23,588 nt of DNA, taken from UHGV virus genome UHGV-1382276, one strand, 5' to 3'. The notes under the pieces were generated by a model. That model did not search any database, was not told the DNA's origin, and saw nothing but the letters and a program-made list of their open reading frames with translations. This DNA comes from a virus. Below, in pieces: positions 1 through 7,774 of this stretch; position 1 is the stretch's first letter; every line of letters starts with the position of its first letter. The translations under genes were made by a program, and so were the position numbers.

Positions 1-255
1 TAACGCGTCGCCGGAAGCCACGTCATAAACCGTTTTACCCCGATGATCTTCAACGAGATGCCACGATGACTCATCACTGTTGAAAACAGCCACGAAACCA
101 GCCGGAATATCTGGCGGTGCAATATAGGTACTGTTTGCAGGCAGACCTGTATGAGGCGGAATATATGCGTCACCTTCACCAATAAATTCATTAGTTCCGG
201 CCAGCAGATTATAAATTTTTATGGTCCGTGGTTGTTCACTCATTCTGAATGCCAT
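1..255 (-). CDS. tfa: Tail fiber assembly protein Tfa, N-terminal 85 codons only; the rest of the gene lies beyond the window start
   Basis: Reverse-complement translation of 255..1 gives [85 protein letters not shown], which I recognise as the N-terminus of lambda Tfa. The ATG (255..253) overlaps the stf stop (TAATG). Absent from the ORF track because it is truncated by the window edge. Confidence 0.85.
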
Positions 256-3200
256 TATGCAAGCCTCACAATATAGTTAACGGTGATGGTATGTCCATGT
301 GAACCAATCGCAACGGAGTGCGTATGAGCACCAATACCGACAGTATGTGCGTGTGCACCTGCGCTTGCAGCAGTACCCGATACAGAGTGCGTATGAGCGC
401 CTGCAGAAGAAGTGTTAACACTGTATTTAGAATAATCAGGTGATCCACTTCCCGGAGCACCACTGGAACCACCTGAAACAAATGTCATCGAATGGGTATG
501 TGCACCGGCTGAAGCAGCCGTACCGCTAACACTATGGGTATGCGCACCAGTGTTATTCGTGGATTTAGTGCCGTAATCAAACGACGATGTGGTTTTCGTC
601 CCCAAATCAGTACTGGATGCGCTGGCGCTGTGGGTATGCGATTTTATGCCGTCCTGTTCCTGAGACAATACGGCACGACCACTGGCGGGCTTGCCCTTAA
701 TCGTCCAGCCACGCATATCAGGGATCACGCCTGACGGATAAGCGGCTGCAAGTTTCGGGTAGGCAGATTTGTCAAAAGTCTGCCCCTGCATCAGGGCATA
801 ACCAGACGGAACGGTATCTGATGGCCACGGGATTGGTGCGCCGATTGGGTAGCTTTCTGGTGGAAGATTTTTCGAGGTATAAACTTCTGCCCAGTCTTCC
901 TCAAAACCATAACCGTCTCTTGAAGAACGGTAGAACAGACCACCATTTCTGTAATGCGCCTTCATCTGCAGGGTCCGGCAACTTCCGACTCCGGTATAGA
1001 AGTTAACCAGAATATAGCTGTCGCCAGAGCGGGTGACATTATAAGCGCCTGATTCGGCATTCCAGGGAACGCCACCATCCGCATCGGCATATGTATCCGT
1101 TGCCCTTCTGGCAAAAGCAGCCACATGCGCGGCGGTTAAAGTAATATCTTTGGAACCATCAAACTCAACACCAGAAACCCGTCTTGGCGTTTGCAGCTTT
1201 GTTTCTGTTAATGCATTACCGTTCAGACTTGCGGACAGTTTGGTTCCAATAACCAGTTCGCCAGTTGCGTTATCAATAGCAAACGGTCTTAATGTATTCC
1301 AGCCACCATAAACATCACCTTGATTGGTAAGCAGCAGGTAAGTTTTAGCGCCATCATTACGCCATAATGCCCCATACTCCCCACCTATCATTCGAATCTG
1401 ATTACCACCACGCGCTACAATTTCGTCTGTGGCAAAAAGTTTTTTGCACGACAAATTATCGTTAACGATTAACGAATGAGACTCATAAAAACCACGCCCA
1501 CTCTTAAAATCAAGGATAACGTCCGCCGCGATACATTCAGTCGCTGGATTTGTTGCCCCAAACTTATAGGTCGTATCATTAACAACGAGATCAGCACCAG
1601 GTGCGGATATTGACAGGCCATCTTCGATAAACGCAAAAACAGGGAAAGCAGCGCCATCAACATAGAACACAGAGCGCAAATCATCGCCCTTATTACTCAT
1701 CATTATTGAGTGGATGGCTCGTTCATTGTTTTGATATTGCCAGAACATTCCATAAGCATAACGCCCCCTGTCAGTCCAGCCACCAGGCATAACAAATCCG
1801 TTAAACTCGCAGTTATTCATCGGATCGCCTGCGGTTCGCGTTGCCGTGGTGATAATGACCCTTGATGCCAGTTCGCTTACTGAGCCAGCAGAACGCATAA
1901 CAACAACAGGGTAATATTTTCCAGATGTTGCACCTGCAGGAGCGTTAACCCGCACATAACGCATACCACGCTTATCAGCAAAGTCTGTTTTACTGACCGC
2001 GTTAATGTTGTTCAGGAAGCGTCCCTTATCGGGTATATCAGCGCCGTTCTGGTCTTTCTGCAGACGTTTCTCTGCATTGTCATAGGCTGATTTTACTGCC
2101 TTTGGCGTTGCCGCCAGCGTTTCAGACGTACTGTTGGTCGCACTGCTGAGCTGTACTATCCCCTTTTTCGTCGTGCTCGCATCCTCAAGCGCCACGGCGG
2201 ATGCAATATCCTCTGCCCGTTTTGCCGCTGTCTCGGCGCGCGTTGCCGCGGATTCCGCCGTACTTTTGCTCTGTGCTGCCGCCGTCGCACTGCCAGCTGC
2301 CTCTGTCGCCTTCGTGGATGCTGTCGTGGCGCTGCCCTTCGCTGCTGACGCCTGTCTGGTCGCCTCATCTTTTGAAGCAGACGCCGATGATGCCGATGAC
2401 GCCGCCGAACTGGCTGACGATGCGGCAGCCGTTTTTGAGGATTCTGCGCTGGTTTCCGACGCTTTCGCGTTCGTTTCGGATGTCTTCGCTGCGGAAGCAG
2501 AACTCGCTGCTGCGCTGGCCTGTTCAGTGGCTTCGCCAGCCTTCGTTGTGGCTGTTGAAGCGGATGATGCGGCGCTTTCTGCCGATTTTCCGGCGGCGGT
2601 GGCACTGGCTGAGGCCTGCCCGGCACTTGTTGACGCGGCGCTGGCAGATGATGCAGCCGCTGTTTTTGAGCCTGCCGCAGCTGAGGCGCTCTGTCCCGCT
2701 GCCGTCTCAGAAGACTTAGCGTTCGTCTCGGACGTTTTTGCCGCCTTCGCGGAATTTCCTGCCGCCGTTGCCGAGGAAGTTGCGCTACTGGCGCTCGAGG
2801 ATGCGTTCGTTTCTGATGATTTCGCTGCCTCTTTTGAGGCCGCCGCATCCCGGGCTGAGGTGGCAGCTTCTGACGCTTTCGTGGTCGCGGTGGATGCAGA
2901 AGTGGCTGCTGATTGTTGTGACGCTGCGGCATTCGTTTCTGACGTTTTCGCGGCACTGGCACTGGTAGCTGCCGCGCTTTTTGAGGACTCTGCAGCAGCA
3001 GCACTTTTCGATGCTTCAGTGGCCTTTGTTGATGCCGTTCCTGCGCTGGAAGACGCTGACTGAGCCGACGTCGCGGCCTGCCCGGCTGATGTGCTGGCTG
3101 CGCGTGCTGAGCCTGCAGCATCAGTCGCATGGGTTGCCGCCTCACGGGCTGATGTGCTGGCATCACTGGCTGACTTCTTCGCGGCTGCCGTGTTCTGTGC

Positions 3201-3560
3201 CACCACGGACGCGTTACGCGCCACCTCTTCCACCATCAGCTCAAAACGGCGCAGTGCCTCCGGACGGGCATCATCCTCCGTCATGGCACCGAGAAAATCA
3301 TTCAGCGTACCGGGTCGGGAATCTTCATACACGGTGATGGTCCCGGCATGTGACGGCGGGAATCCTTCCACCAACAGAATAACGCTGTACTGACCGTACT
3401 CAACGTCCATGCTGTAACGCCCGGCTTCATCCGGATTTTCTGAGGCCAGCGTGTTCACCACCACCGTGGTGCTGTTACGTTTTGCTTTCAGCTGGATTGT
3501 GCAGTTCTGTACCGGTTTTCCTGTGCCGTCTTTCAGTACACCTGAAATCTTTACTGCCAT
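255..3560 (-). CDS. stf: Side tail fiber protein, intact, 1101 aa; lambda-like N-terminus and C-terminus with an expanded and partly replaced middle
   Basis: ORF track 255..3566. The N-terminal ~120 aa ([35 protein letters not shown]...) and the C-terminal ~200 aa (GAPIPWPSD...KSHTHSASA...[16 protein letters not shown]) match lambda Stf as I recall it. I place the start at the ATG 3560..3558, preceded by GGGGTG, rather than the GTG at 3566 used by the ORF track. Confidence 0.9.
2202..3209 (-). repeat. Ala/Ser/Thr-rich low-complexity coding repeat forming the stf shaft, with a recurring AAKTSETNA unit
   Basis: stf residues ~120-455 are almost entirely A/S/T/K/E with quasi-periodic units. AAKTSETNA recurs three times at ~71-83 aa spacing, and the DNA shows matching near-repeats around 2461-2490, 2711-2745 and 2930-2950. 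The plus-strand ORFs in this interval are shadows of this region. Confidence 0.7.
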
Positions 3561-3571
3561 ATTCACCCCAC

Positions 3572-3598
3572 AAAAAAGCCCGCCTGAACCGGCGGGCT
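3572..3598 (-). terminator. Rho-independent terminator candidate downstream of lom
   Basis: Perfect 8-bp inverted repeat agcccgcc (3577..3584) / ggcgggct (3591..3598) with a 6-nt loop. The plus-strand A6 run at 3572..3577 gives a U-tract immediately 3' of the hairpin on the minus-strand transcript. It sits between the lom stop (3625) and the stf start (3560). Confidence 0.55.
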
Positions 3599-3624
3599 GT
3601 CATAACACTGTGTTACCTGGCTAA

Positions 3625-4224
3625 TCAGAATTTATAACCGACACCCACGATGAAACCGTCAGTGCGCCAGTCGCCACTGCCGGAGCCTTCATAAGCAATA
3701 TCAATGGCCACGGATTCGGTCGGGTTAAACTGCACGCCAGCCCCCCACGCCAGAGACGTGTTGCTGTGGCGACCGTCATCACTTCCGGTCAGCACATCGT
3801 GCGTTTTCCCCTTGTTGTCAGTTACGCGGAGATAATCCCCGAAGAAAGTCGACACACGGCTGTAAGCCACACCCGCCATCGCATACACGCTGAACCATTC
3901 ATTCACGCGCACAGACGGCCCCGCCATTACGCTGAACCAGCGGTTACGAACGGAATCTTCATGCCAGCGGGTATCGCTGTAATGGGTCAGCTGGCGATTC
4001 TTGTCTCCTGCATAGCTGAATGACGTCACCATCCCCAGTGTGTCCGTAAACTCATAACGGTATTTCACGTTAATCCCGTTCAGATCATCGCTGCCGGGAA
4101 CGTTCGTCGAGGCATGAAGATACCCCGCGCTCAGCGTGGACTGATGTTCAGACGCCCATGCAGACGCACCGGATACGACCTGCCAGACTACTGCGGACAA
4201 AATAACAGCACATAATTTACGCAT
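3625..4224 (-). CDS. lom: Lom-like outer membrane beta-barrel protein (Ail/Lom/PagC family), 199 aa
   Basis: ORF track. Has an N-terminal signal-peptide-like segment (MRKLCAVILSAVVWQVVSGASAWA), a C-terminal ...AYEGSGSGDWRTDGFIVGVGYKF ending in aromatic Phe as in lambda Lom, and GAGGT/GAGAGG 6 nt upstream of the ATG. Same position as lambda lom (between J and stf) but the N-terminal two-thirds is diverged and it is 7 aa shorter than the 206 aa I recall for lambda. Confidence 0.85.
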   Translation of the reverse strand: MRKLCAVILSAVVWQVVSGASAWASEHQSTLSAGYLHASTNVPGSDDLNGINVKYRYEFTDTLGMVTSFSYAGDKNRQLTHYSDTRWHEDSVRNRWFSVMAGPSVRVNEWFSVYAMAGVAYSRVSTFFGDYLRVTDNKGKTHDVLTGSDDGRHSNTSLAWGAGVQFNPTESVAIDIAYEGSGSGDWRTDGFIVGVGYKF

Positions 4225-4291: not shown

Positions 4292-7200
4292 TCAGCTAAT
4301 CGTGATGCCTGCAGTGGCTTTCTTCATCACCACAACCAGCAGATCGCTGATACTGGTTGTTGGTGTCCAGTTATTCGCTCCTGATGAAGATACGGTGAAT
4401 GTCAGTGTCAGTGTCCCCTGTCCGGCAGGCATATCTATAACTGAGGAAAATACGCCCTGAGCATCCGTCGTGGACTGATTAAAAATCTCCTGACCATTGC
4501 GGGTCACTCTTAACCGGCAGGTTGAATACCAGTATGACTGTTGGTTATTACTGTTGAAATTCTCATGCTTACCACCGCGGAATAACACTGGAGGTATCAT
4601 GACCTGCCGGTCAAACTTCTGATCATCACTGATTCTTACCGTGATGGTGCCACTGGCATAACTGTTCGTGCGGGGGAAAGACTTGCTGACCGTTTTGACA
4701 ATATCGCCTTCAATCTGATTGGCTGACAGTTTCCCCTTAATCTGACAGTTCTCATTAATCGTGACGTTGTTGAGCGTCCCGGAGTTCGCATTCACACTGC
4801 CACTGATATCCGCATTTTTAGCAGTCAGCTTTCCGTCCGGTGTCAGGGAAAATGCCGGTGGATTTCCACCGCTGGTAATGGTGGGGGCCGTCAGGCGTTT
4901 CAGGAACACGTCGTTCATGAATATCTGATCGCCCTGACCAACAAACATCGGTTTTGTGTTGCCATTCGCAGGATTAACCATCGCAATCCTGTCCGCCGCC
5001 AGCAGCACCTGACTCTGCATGCCGTCAGGGGTGTTCTCAATACCGGCACCAATACCCGCGATATAAAGGCGTCCGTCCTGCATCTGCTGCAGCTTCACAG
5101 CCCACATGCTGTTCAGGTTATTATTTGTATCAACCTGAACCTTCTGTATCTGCTGAATTGCCGCACTCTGGTCTTCCAGTTTCTTATTGACGGTCTGCGT
5201 GATTTCATTGCTGACATCCGTAATGGACGTCCTGATTTCAGCCAGGTCAGGCGCAAGCTGACCGTTATCAATCTGCGTCCACAGCTCCTGAGCCAGATGG
5301 CTTTTCCCTATCTCGCCTTTGAAAAAATCCAGATAGCCGGATGCATCATCACTCGGCTGACCAACAGCCTCCACGAATGCCGATTTGCCAACGGTGTTCA
5401 CACTGCGGATATAAAAGTAATAATCATGGCCCGGTTTGATATTGATACTGGCGGCTATCCAGTACATCCCCGTGCCAAGATAGCGCGCGCTGGTTTCAAC
5501 CTGCCTGATATCCGCAATCCGCTTTTCCGAGAACCAGAACTCAAACTGTACCGTCGGATCATAAACCGCAAGATGCGGCGTGGCGGTTATCTGAAAATAC
5601 CCCGGTGTCAGCTCAATCTGCGACGGCGCTGCCGGTGCGGCAATCCGGAACGATACCGATGCCGGATCGCCCTGCTGCCCCCACGCATTTACTGCCCGGA
5701 CTGTCAGCCTGTAGTTCCCCAGCGCCAGTTGTGTGAAGCGGTATGTGGTTTCCGCCGTCCGGGCTGTGCTGACCAGCCGCTCACTGCCGTCATCCGCTGC
5801 CACGGTCAGGCGAAGCATAAAGCTCACCCCCTTCACCACCTTCGGCGTGTCCCAGCGGGCCAGTACCTGATATTCCCCGCTGTCTGCGGTGACTTCGGCA
5901 GTCAGGTGCTGCACCGCTGGCGGCGTGACACCATTCACCGTGCCGCTCTGGTCGCCGTCAAAGTGCGCCCCGTTATCCACGATGGCCTCTTTTTCCGGTA
6001 CATGCTGCACGGCGGTGATGGCATACATACCGTCGTCGTTCTCACGGATACTCACGCAGCGGAACAGGCGCTGGCGCAGCGTCGGCAGCTTCAGCCCCCA
6101 CACGCTGTATCCGGCAACGCCGTCAGGAACACGGCTCACTTTTACCTTCACGCCGTCGGTGACGGACTGGACCTCCACGCTGACCGGATTGCCACTTCCG
6201 TCAACCAGGCTTATCAGCGTGGTACCGGAGGATGGCAGCGTGATTTCACGGTCGAGCGTCAGCGTCCGGGTCTGGCTGTTCACCGCCAGCACGCGCCCGC
6301 CGGTGCGGATACCGGCATAGTCATCATCGCAGATTTCAATGACATCGCCCGGCACATGGCGAAGCCCTTCTGCGCCCACGCTGAAATCCACGGTCTGTGT
6401 TTCCAGCAGTTCTGTTTTAATCAGCCACAGCCCGGCGCGATGTGCCTGCCCCCGGCTGGTACAGCCAAAGGCATCCATCTTCGTGACGTTACGACCGTAA
6501 CGGGCAATGGCCTGCGTGTCCTCCACAAGCTCTGTCGCCGTCTCCCAGCCGTTATTCGGGTCAATCCAGTTCACCTCAACGGCATTATGGCGGTCCTTCA
6601 GGGCGCTGAAGCTGTAGCGGAACGGCGCGCCATCATCCGGCATCACCACATTACTGCGGTTATAGGTCCACACCTTATCTGATGGTCGGTCCTGCACGAA
6701 CGTCAGCGTCTGCCCGTTCCATACCGGCATACAGCGCATCGCCGAGCAGAAATCACTGAGCACATCCCACGCCTTGCGCTGTGTGGTCAGGTACGCATTA
6801 CAGATGATGCGCGGCTCCGTGCCGCCAAAGCCGTCCGGCACTGACTGGTCGCAGTACTGGCCGATGACATACAGCGCCCATTTATCCACATCCGCCGCAC
6901 CAAGACGTTTCCCCATGCCGTAGCGCGGATGGGTCAGCATATCCCACAGACACCAGGCCATGTTGTTGCTGTATGCCGGTTTAAACGTTCCGTCCCAGAT
7001 ACCGCTGTATTGCCGCGTCTGCGGGTTATAGTTCGACGGCACCTGCAGAATGCGCCCGCGCAGATGATAATTACGGCTCACCTGCTGGCTGCCGAACTGC
7101 TCCGAATCCACCTGCACGCCGACCAGTGCCGTGTTCGGGTAGCCCTGTTTCACATCGATGATTTCGGTGTATGACGACCAGAGCGTTTTGTTCTGCAGCT

Positions 7201-7774
7201 GGTCTGTGGTGCTGTCCGGCGTCATCCTGCGCATCCGGATATTGAACGGGCGCGGCGGCAGGTTACCCACCACCACCGAGGCCAGATACTGCGAGGTGGT
7301 TTTGCCCTTAATGGTGATGTCTTTTTCCGTCACCCAGCCACCATTACGCTGTATCTGAACCAGCAGGCGAACTTCCGACGGATTCCGGTCCCCCTTTGAG
7401 GTGGTTTCCACCAGTGCCTGCACGCCGAAGGTAAAACGCAGTCGGTCAATGTTTGCCGACGTGATGGTCCGGGTGATCGGCGTGTCGTATTTCACTTCCG
7501 TACCCAGCACCGTCTCGGAGCCGGAGGATTCAAATCCCTCCGGCGGTGTCTGCTCCTGCTCACCGGCCCGGAACACCACCGTGACGCCGGAGATATTGGT
7601 ATTCCCCTCACTGTCCAGCACTGGCGTACTGTTCAGCAGCACGCTTTTTAATCCATCCACCGGACCTTCAACCGGCCCTTCGCTGATGGCATCGATCACA
7701 CTCAGCAACTGCGTGGACTTCAGGTTGTCCTTCGCTTCGCGCGGGGTATGCCCCTTACTGCTGCCTTTACCCAT
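4292..7774 (-). CDS. J: Tail tip central fiber / host specificity protein J, 1160 aa
   Basis: ORF track. The N-terminal ~800 aa ([34 protein letters not shown]...) match lambda J. The C-terminal ~350 aa diverge from what I recall of lambda J and are 28 aa longer than lambda's 1132. Confidence 0.93.

Follow-up and report, generated by a model that had tools for sequence, protein, structure and literature searches.

The side tail fibre gene stf of the virus genome UHGV-1382276 carries a long, Ala/Ser/Thr-rich stretch, and the question raised by this locus is whether that stretch is an expanded DNA repeat whose length is apt to change or a structural element whose regularity lies in the protein. 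The analysis covers a stretch of 23,588 nucleotides, referred to here as the window. The best overall explanation, which we hold with a probability of about 0.85, is a coiled-coil rod of heptads in the version found in stfR, encoded by DNA that is not repetitive and stable in length within its lineage.

The gene is a lambda-type prophage side tail fibre gene. Three features of the Stf/StfR proteins are present: the N-terminal PF08400 (PfN) domain (residues 3-136, E = 1.6e-71 in Pfam), the gene order J - lom - stf - tfa, which is also the order annotated in homologues, and a gp37-like distal part with HxH repeats. The tfa start codon overlaps the stf stop codon, and tfa is annotated at the corresponding position in homologues. 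The product is 1103 aa long when read from a GTG and 1101 aa when read from the ATG of MAVKISG; homologues use this ATG, at position 3560, as their start. Pfam places Gp34_trimer, Collar and Phage_fiber domains further along the protein, and the Stf genes of phages 2H10, mEp332 and PhiR34_1 share 95-98% nucleotide identity with this gene. Residues 1-94 match the 94-residue 'Tail fiber protein' of PDB 9e7m/9mgh (E = 2e-51), chains that we read as the Ur-lambda collar domain, since a domain with these residue limits is described in the structure paper (PMC12617516). At the other end, residues 902-1096 of the 1101-aa form match T4 gp37 (PDB 2xgf, E = 1.9e-75). Alignment with E. coli EC291 and six phage Stf proteins locates an in-frame deletion of 45 nt (15 aa) near the C-terminus of the window copy, which also sets it apart from the stfR orthologues; because these 15 aa are missing, function is uncertain. 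The features discussed below are collected in Table 1.

Table 1. Coordinates in the window of stf, its parts, its neighbours and the open reading frames that overlap its shaft.
Feature	Residues of Stf	Position	Strand	Basis or remark
stf, side tail fibre gene		255..3566	minus	ORF list
J		4292..7774	minus	ORF list
lom		3625..4224	minus	ORF list
tfa, 5' part (tail fibre assembly protein)		1..255	minus	translation; runs past window end
N-terminal collar/attachment domain and linker	3-112	3231..3560	minus	PF08400, PDB match
Shaft, 49 uninterrupted heptads x-x-A-x-x-S-A	113-455	2202..3230	minus	layout, column composition, autocorrelation
AAKTSETNA, copy 1	205-213	2928..2954	minus	also in lambda
AAKSSETNA, variant copy	247-255	2802..2828	minus	also in lambda
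AAKTSETNA, copy 2	275-283	2718..2744	minus	crossover point in hybrid fibres
AAKTSETNA, copy 3	359-367	2466..2492	minus	inside extra 15-heptad block
Possible ancient source of the extra block	155-245	2832..3104	minus	aligns with residues 309-399 (nt 2370-2642)
15-heptad block without counterpart in lambda Stf	309-413	2328..2642	minus	blastn and gap placement
Distal tip, T4 gp37-like, HxH repeats		273..857	minus	PDB 2xgf; Pfam Collar and Phage_fiber
Junction TTAAC of the 45-nt in-frame deletion near the stf 3' end		276..280	minus	alignments
Spurious 336-aa ORF, +1 frame of stf		2156..3166	minus	composition, homologues
Spurious 309-aa antisense ORF		2134..3063	plus	homologue frames
Spurious 172-aa antisense ORF		2201..2719	plus	same nature as 2134..3063

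An earlier note, made from the letters alone, had drawn attention to residues 120-455, which correspond exactly to nt 2202-3209, as consisting almost entirely of Ala, Ser and Thr with Lys, Glu and Gln. Composition bears this out: the first three residues make up 74.7% of the segment, and all six together 90.5%. The order beneath this composition is a heptad. Self-identity of the shaft rises to z = 8-10 at all lags divisible by 7, where the 99th percentile of the maximum in shuffled sequences is 3.6, and the columns of the pattern are strict, with Ala at position 3 in 47 of the 49 heptads, Ser at position 6 in 37 and Ala at position 7 in 35. When the heptad signal is removed by shuffling within heptad columns, no longer period is significant over the shaft as a whole (maximum z = 2.58, at lag 77; 95% threshold z = 2.89), and a repeat unit of ~70-84 aa was rejected on this basis. 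The true repeat unit of the shaft is the heptad rather than a block of about 75 aa. Variation among 58 distinct homologous shafts follows the same register, with 17, 18, 24 and 21 variable columns at positions 1, 2, 4 and 5, and only 6, 8 and 5 at positions 3, 6 and 7. By stf codon position the variable sites number 57, 51 and 194, so the stf frame is under purifying selection.

The peptide AAKTSETNA does occur three times, as the note had said, with spacings of 70 and 84 aa (10 and 12 heptads) in place of the ~71-83 aa given there. The motif belongs to the heptad pattern, and may also belong to an ancient duplication of residues 155-245 into 309-399; spanning two heptads, it would put a Glu in the core with a Lys beside it. 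Near-repetition in DNA, over and above what coding for the heptad produces, is not borne out. The copies are 60-72% identical in nucleotides and reuse codons at a frequency of 0.14-0.40, which is the level of the background (0.27). AAKTSETNA is conserved in its amino acids but not in its nucleotides, and other shaft families have it too, one of them seven times over.

The proposal that the shaft is a trimeric, alpha-helical or coiled structure is supported by the strict heptad, Ala at both core positions, a helical model, and homology to characterised fibres. Residues 113-455 would form one continuous alpha-helical coiled coil of 49 heptads in which the core is almost always Ala, with a at heptad position 7, d at position 3 and Ser at the flanking g. 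An Ala-only core is unusual and may be of marginal stability. The E. coli lipoprotein Lpp-56 is an alanine-zipper, a parallel trimeric coiled coil with small Ala residues in core layers, and indicates that such cores are structurally feasible, although its sequence is unrelated, its length only 56 aa and its core only partly Ala. Helical secondary structure is predicted by AlphaFold2, run on a single chain with no alignment, which returns helices H8-164 and H169-385 over 388 residues at a mean pLDDT of 73.6; because the model is a single chain and folds the helix back on itself, it is silent on oligomeric state.

For the assembly of three chains, the relatives of the shaft are the guide. The 774-aa Stf of Ur-lambda consists of a collar, a linker, a proximal coiled coil, a hinge and a distal part; it is a trimer with the proximal coiled-coil domain at residues 102-393, and its trimeric bundle continues from the collar (PMC12617516). 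For the lambda shaft, that published model is based on fitting AlphaFold3 segments to tomograms, and trimeric assembly on the tail tip with faster adsorption is known for Ur-lambda only (PMC12617516). The window protein is co-linear with lambda Stf in its N-terminal domain and in the flanks of its shaft, which are 80-87% identical in nucleotides and in the same heptad register. A second relative is PCoil, in the collagen-like fibre proteins EPclA and EPclB of E. coli O157 prophages (Ghosh et al. 2012, PMC3368898), whose Ala/Ser-rich heptad Ala-x-x-Ala/Ser-x-x-Ser directly follows the PF08400 domain. SEC-MALLS, circular dichroism and electron microscopy of the PfN-PCoil fragment from an E. coli prophage fibre show a trimer with alpha-helical structure, and PCoil length differences are multiples of 7 (PMC3368898). 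The shaft of the window likewise follows PfN, is predicted to be helical and differs from lambda in whole heptads (105 aa). PCoil is far shorter, with a run of 16 heptads in the related locus L111 against 49 here, is richer in charged residues and leads into a collagen triple helix rather than a distal part like Mu S or gp37. The shaft is a homologue of both the Ur-lambda proximal trimeric coiled coil and PCoil, each of which has been characterised experimentally.

By analogy with these homologues, three chains would be wound together as the thin, proximal rod of the fibre, which links the N-terminal collar domain, clamped on the tail tip, with the hinge and the receptor-binding distal part beyond it. 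Such a rod, presumably trimeric and rigid, would serve as a ~51-nm spacer (343 residues at ~0.148 nm each), ~15.5 nm beyond the 34-heptad rod of lambda. A disordered or beta-structured Ser/Thr-rich low-complexity linker, for instance a flexible tether or a modified region, is a highly improbable reading of the same residues. Ser and Thr do have low helix propensity, the corresponding region of K-12 StfR has been flagged as low-complexity (PMC12695832), and a PDB search yields matches to residues 1-94 and from 441 onwards only, with no solved structure for the shaft. However, a seven-residue register that runs unbroken over 343 residues with Ala spaced by 3 and 4 is not what a linker of this kind accounts for, and the predicted helix, the measured helicity and trimeric state of PCoil (PMC3368898) and the trimeric bundle leaving the Ur-lambda collar (PMC12617516) all speak for the rod.

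The coiled-coil rod is also an ordinary and already known feature, in the same version as in K-12 stfR. The stfR gene and its many prophage and phage orthologues, those of 2H10, mEp332 and PhiR34_1 among them, have the same domain order and 49 heptads with no shaft indel, and the stfR of K-12-derived strains is 95.8% identical to the window over nt 2100-3300. Distal and tip modules vary among these relatives, and complete homologues range from 652 to 1248 aa in total.

The DNA of the shaft is not repetitive. No exact direct repeat exceeds 15 nt, where permutation of synonymous codons gives a mean of 13.2 nt (P = 0.19), and the number of repeated 12-mers equals the expectation of the same permutation. 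In a dot matrix with windows of five heptads (105 nt), the best in-register match is 58%, below the null median of 59%, and Tandem Repeats Finder reports only two weak arrays, of periods 9 and 21. Across these tests and a further repeat search (find_repeats), repeats in the shaft DNA show neither the excess left by a recent duplication nor the deficit left by selection against repeats.

Length is equally constant among relatives, as measured on loci from IMG/VR and GTDB genomes. The shaft is 343 aa long in all 71 homologues, which are 88-98% identical and comprise 58 distinct sequences; of the 73 full-length shafts of this type in the locus scans, 71 have this length. An E. coli genome search gave, in its 'spread' sample, 46 full-coverage rows, of which 45 have no shaft indel, stfR of the K-12-derived strains among them. 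Three relatives differ slightly, by +4 aa (STSA) in L015, +9 aa (AAAESSKSA) in L090 and -1 aa in SW070912, none of these being a multiple of 7. As the sampled homologues are close relatives (at least 88% identical), the constant length could come partly from recent common ancestry rather than from selection. Searching a protein database with the N-terminal domain yielded hardly anything but partial fragments of less than 245 aa, which were unusable for shaft length. Variants with an additional 132 nt in E. coli genomes were considered as length variants and set aside: they carry a 44-aa duplication downstream of the shaft.

These observations bear on a rival view of the locus, in which the shaft was recently lengthened by DNA duplication and its repeats now promote slippage or unequal recombination, leaving fibre length variable in populations. 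Peptide motifs do recur, the block that lambda lacks resembles residues 155-245 in protein, and rare small tandem duplications or deletions exist in the three relatives just named. Against this, the DNA has neither the long exact repeats, the surplus of 12-mers nor the in-register identity that such a history calls for, the AAKTSETNA copies differ in their codons, nearly all shafts in the locus scans and genome rows agree in length, and the block and its putative source are far more diverged than the flanks shared with lambda. We consider this view very unlikely and already largely refuted. The corresponding claim of the earlier note, that DNA repeats make the region prone to recombinational changes in length, falls with it, since the DNA is non-repetitive and 71 homologues with up to 12% protein divergence all keep 343 aa; the note had itself named identical length in homologues as one observation that would refute it.

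Comparison with lambda Stf shows that the window shaft is indeed the longer, with 49 heptads against 34, as had been proposed; that it grew by internal duplication is the part of that proposal that the data favour only weakly. By blastn, nt 1-908 of the window stf correspond to lambda nt 1-908, and nt 1214-1469 to lambda nt 899-1154. The two proteins are separated here by a single gap of exactly 105 aa (15 x 7), best placed after heptad 28. Lambda lacks this block and already holds two of the three AAKTSETNA copies together with the AAKSSETNA variant. The shaft accounts for only 105 of the 327 residues by which the window protein exceeds that of lambda; the remainder lies in a replaced distal module, which is larger in the window and includes a domain like the T4 gp34 trimerization domain. 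In an alignment by heptad units, the block scores 18.0 locally against residues 155-245 (null 11.7 +/- 1.6, P ~0.001), and over twelve aligned heptads the two are 67% identical in protein and 56% in DNA (P = 0.096). This similarity hints at an internal duplication, and because it exists in protein and not in DNA, any such duplication would be ancient. Moreover, as the block is far more diverged from its possible source (56% in DNA) than the lambda and window flanks are from each other (80-87%), its creation does not postdate the divergence from lambda, and a loss of the block on the lambda side is equally possible.

The direction of change could accordingly be the reverse of that assumed, with 49 heptads as the older or majority state and the 34 of lambda derived by an in-register deletion of 315 nt or by recombination with a shorter fibre. 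If so, the window shaft is not 'expanded' at all. We rate this a serious possibility that falls a little short of even odds. In its favour, the block is too diverged from any internal source to postdate the split, all 71 homologues carry it, as does a phage-plasmid fibre with a different N-terminus, and among 5426 complete E. coli genomes there are 3576 in which the 49-heptad form reaches a query coverage of at least 80%. Abundance gives no polarity, however, no clear microhomology is found at the lambda/window indel junction, and other families have 33, 31 or 16 heptads.

Natural hybrids illustrate how one length class turns into another. In L070 and E. coli E92 the fibre changes over to another shaft family within AAKTSETNA copy 2, at stf nt 813-842, and the hits H81-H85 end at the same nucleotide. 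Changes of length class come about by homologous exchange, in register, with other fibre genes, AAKTSETNA being one place where this happens. One may go further and regard the shaft as a ruler, in which a selected, quantised length sets the reach of the side fibre relative to J while the polar-core layers of AAKTSETNA lock the register of an Ala core that is featureless elsewhere and supply crossover points; as it stands, this is a speculative and rather unlikely extension. The accompanying idea that families swap modules and thereby jump between 49, 43, 34, 33 and 31 heptads is to our minds equally doubtful.

The shaft is also overlain by long open reading frames, which the earlier note correctly called spurious. 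Because the shaft has almost no codons with T in second position, no stop codon can form in its +1 frame. That the +1 frame (2156..3166, minus) or the antisense frame (2134..3063, plus) is a real overlapping gene is scarcely credible. The frames are long, counterparts are annotated in lambda (orf206b), phi458 (Orf45) and pYLPD4a, and 66% of homologues leave the +1 sense frame open. Yet this openness follows from the scarcity of T-second codons, and the variable sites pile up on the third position of stf codons, which is the second position of the +1 frame (194 sites against 57 and 51). Of 64 homologous shaft DNAs, only 0-2% leave the antisense frames open throughout; in the other 98-100% these frames are interrupted. 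As genes, the alternative-frame ORFs were rejected on their substitution pattern and on stop codons in homologues; they are by-products of composition. It is the lambda counterpart of the antisense ORF 2134..3063 that has been annotated as orf206b.

The findings on the shaft do not challenge current understanding of these fibres, and their consequences are mainly for how the genes are read and used. The region should be annotated as a coiled-coil rod and not as a repeat-expansion locus, and the other-frame ORFs annotated in lambda, phi458 and the phage-plasmid are to be ignored. In E. coli genomes this DNA is present in a median of 2 and up to 10 copies, a multiplicity that probably explains why many of the database records of the protein are partial and stop in the shaft. 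For the engineering of fibres, the heptad register and the junctions of natural hybrids, such as AAKTSETNA, mark splice sites for chimeric Stf proteins, and the rod could be lengthened in steps of 7 residues, ~1 nm each.

The stf product is a lambda-type side tail fibre. Its gene follows J and lom and precedes tfa, and the protein carries the PF08400 N-terminal domain (Pfam, E = 1.6e-71) as well as a T4 gp34-like trimerization domain, a Collar domain and a Phage_fiber repeat. The N-terminus matches PDB chains 9e7m/9mgh ('Tail fiber protein', 94 residues; E = 2e-51), which we take to be the collar domain of Ur-lambda Stf because a domain of residues 1–94 is described for that fibre (PMC12617516). 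Residues 120–455, mapping exactly to nt 2202–3209, are 74.7% Ala, Ser and Thr, and 90.5% with Lys, Glu and Gln included, so the description of this shaft in an earlier note as Ala/Ser/Thr-rich is accurate. Its true repeat unit is the heptad: self-identity is 0.40–0.47 at all lags divisible by 7 (z = 8–10; maximum z in shuffled sequences, 99th percentile 3.6) and depressed at other lags. Residues 113–455 form 49 rows of seven in unbroken register with the pattern x-x-A-x-x-S-A, in which position 3 is Ala in 47 of the 49 rows, position 6 Ser in 37 and position 7 Ala in 35 and otherwise K, E, Q or T. As positions 7 and 3 are spaced three and four residues apart, they are the a and d positions of a coiled-coil core, with Ser at g. 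The three AAKTSETNA copies that the earlier note had placed at ~71–83 aa spacing are present, at residues 205, 275 and 359, and lie 70 and 84 aa apart, which is just 10 and 12 heptads. With the heptad signal removed by within-column shuffling, no higher-order period was found (maximum z = 2.58 at 77 aa; 95% threshold 2.89). AAKTSETNA is conserved as a peptide, since its codons differ between copies and it recurs seven times in another shaft family. In register it places Glu at a core position with Lys beside it, which suggests that such polar layers might hold an otherwise uniform Ala core in register.

That the shaft is a coiled coil, as first proposed, is well supported by its register, by modelling and by homologues. 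An AlphaFold2 single-chain model of residues 93–480 is helical throughout (helices 8–164 and 169–385 of 388; mean pLDDT 73.6); with only one chain modelled, the helix expectedly doubles back on itself, and the model is uninformative on oligomeric state. Among PDB matches there was no solved structure spanning the shaft. Ur-lambda Stf, visualised as a trimer, consists of an N-terminal collar (1–91), a linker, a proximal coiled coil (102–393), a hinge and a distal part (PMC12617516). PCoil, a domain of E. coli prophage fibre proteins found to be trimeric and alpha-helical by SEC-MALLS, circular dichroism and rotary-shadowing electron microscopy, has an Ala-x-x-Ala/Ser-x-x-Ser heptad and length differences in multiples of seven (Ghosh et al. 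2012; PMC3368898). By analogy with these homologues, the shaft would be trimeric.

Features of stf and length classes of related shafts
Feature	Location	Strand	Remarks
stf ORF	255..3566	minus	1103 aa; 1101 aa from the MAVKISG ATG, the start used by homologues
45-nt in-frame deletion, 3' end of stf	276-280	minus	flanked by a TTAAC direct repeat
33-heptad class			Escherichia ruysiae, Escherichia sp.
31-heptad class (about)			hybrids, including locus L070 and E. coli E92 (L135)
43-heptad class			phage-plasmid fibre with a different N-terminus
16-heptad class			collagen-like fibre (L111)

The near-repeats that the earlier note had reported at the DNA level were not borne out. Repeat families found by repeat search are only 60–88% identical, with spacings mostly multiples of 21 nt, and Tandem Repeats Finder returns two weak arrays, of period 9 and 21. 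Recurring peptide motifs are 56–80% identical in DNA, and the same codon is reused at identical motif residues at rates of 0.14–0.56, scattered about a background of 0.27. The best in-register 105-nt match (58%) lies under the null median of 59%. Against permutation of synonymous codons, exact direct repeats reach no more than 15 nt (null mean for the longest, 13.2; P(null >= observed) = 0.19) and repeated 12-mers are as numerous as expected. The shaft DNA therefore shows neither traces of a recent duplication nor signs that repeats were selected against.

A comparison with lambda confirms that the window shaft is the longer, with 49 heptads vs 34. Lambda stf nt 1–908 aligns to nt 1–908 of the window gene at 87% identity, and 899–1154 to 1214–1469 at 80% (blastn). 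The best single-gap placement is one block of exactly 15 heptads (residues 309–413, nt 2328–2642), the rest being co-linear. At the coiled-coil rise of ~0.148 nm per residue, the rod would measure about 51 nm in the window and 35 nm in lambda. Only 105 of the 327 residues by which the window protein exceeds lambda Stf lie in the shaft, the remainder being a replaced distal module, and two of the three AAKTSETNA copies are already in lambda. The proposed lengthening by internal duplication is at best ancient. Local alignment of heptad units places residues 309–399 onto 155–245 (score 18.0 vs a null of 11.7 +/- 1.6, P about 0.001), with twelve aligned heptads 67% identical in protein over a background of 40%, but the corresponding DNA identity of 56% is not significant (P about 0.1). 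Judged on this protein likeness, an ancient duplication is a plausible source of the block; it must long predate the lambda/window split, because the flanks common to both are 80–87% identical. Equally, the block may have been lost from lambda; the indel junction has no clear microhomology.

Shaft length is conserved among homologues, and the recombinational instability expected by the earlier note is not supported. Among loci retrieved by N-terminal domain from IMG/VR and GTDB genomes, the shaft is exactly 343 aa in 71 (58 distinct protein and 64 distinct DNA sequences), with pairwise protein identity down to 88%; the complete ORFs encode proteins of 652 to 1248 aa in total. Matches occur in 4354 of 5426 complete E. 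coli genomes, with a median of 2 places per genome and a maximum of 10. Of 60 rows taken evenly down the ranking of these matches, 46 had full coverage and 45 of those lack any shaft indel, including K-12-derived stfR at 95.8% identity. The exceptions found (L015, +4 aa; L090, +9 aa; SW070912, -1 aa) are small slippage-type events. Rows with +132 nt reflect a 44-aa duplication downstream of the Ala/Ser region. This tandem duplication, seen just after the shaft in PhiR26_1, E. coli D10 and SW070912 (window equivalent ~nt 2085–2100), is a real length polymorphism, though outside the shaft. Almost all of 120 database proteins listed with the Stf N-terminus are short, most being labelled partial; short-read assemblies probably break at the shaft, given its multiple copies per E. 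coli genome.

The open reading frames in other frames are spurious, as the earlier note held, and we reject them as genes. Almost no shaft codons have T at the second position, so the +1 sense frame cannot form a stop. TCA (Ser), used 28 times, reads as TGA in the antisense frame in phase with stf codons, which holds 22–31 stops. Across the 64 homologous DNAs, variable sites at stf codon positions 1, 2 and 3 number 57, 51 and 194; antisense frames are fully open in 0–2% and the +1 frame in 66%. These frames are by-products of composition. Antisense shaft ORFs are annotated as protein-coding in public records of lambda (orf206b, L004 3004–3624), phi458 (Orf45, L009 4504–5241) and plasmid pYLPD4a (L133 3019–3702), and are composition artefacts. 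Loci L093–L108 and similar ones are laboratory lambda with the frameshifted orf-401 allele, on low-coverage contigs in assemblies of unrelated species (Pseudomonas, Shewanella, Leeuwenhoekiella, Neobacillus, Oceanobacillus and others), some ~48.4–48.5 kb long vs 48.5 kb for lambda; they most likely stem from contamination with sequencing spike-in or laboratory DNA.

The 45-nt deletion removes 15 aa (AAGNAENTVKNIAFN) directly ahead of the conserved C-terminal YIVRLA. The stf of E. coli EC291, 99.9% identical elsewhere, and six phage Stf proteins do not have it, and from sequence the window fibre may be defective. EC291 (L134, 9749–13201) is the closest genome; its prophage adjoins ybhB and bioA, the lambda attachment region, and the position after tfa, taken by a Pin-type invertase in several relatives, is occupied by a diguanylate cyclase gene.

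Shaft length changes by in-register exchange with other fibre genes, as in the recurrent hybrids L070 and E. coli E92: these match the window at 96% identity as far as stf nt 842, from where an E. ruysiae-type shaft takes over. The crossover falls within AAKTSETNA copy 2 (stf nt 813–842; L070 nt 5813–5842), in 30 nt common to both parents, and 5 of the 60 sampled genome rows (H81–H85) break off at the same nucleotide. Between lambda and the Rac prophage, recombination across stf-tfa has been demonstrated experimentally (PMC3945230). Plasmid pYLPD4a (112 kb), a putative phage-plasmid, matches stf nt 534–1559 at 94.5% identity (nt 3000–4026) within a fibre of >1493 aa with an unrelated N-terminus. 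The fibre on MAG contig L111 (ORF residues ~225–360), of the EPcl type of Ghosh et al. 2012, joins a PF08400 domain to 16 in-register heptads and a collagen-like Gly-X-Y region. The shaft is the proximal coiled coil already known from Stf/StfR-type fibres; most E. coli genomes carry it, and different fibre genes exchange it as a module.
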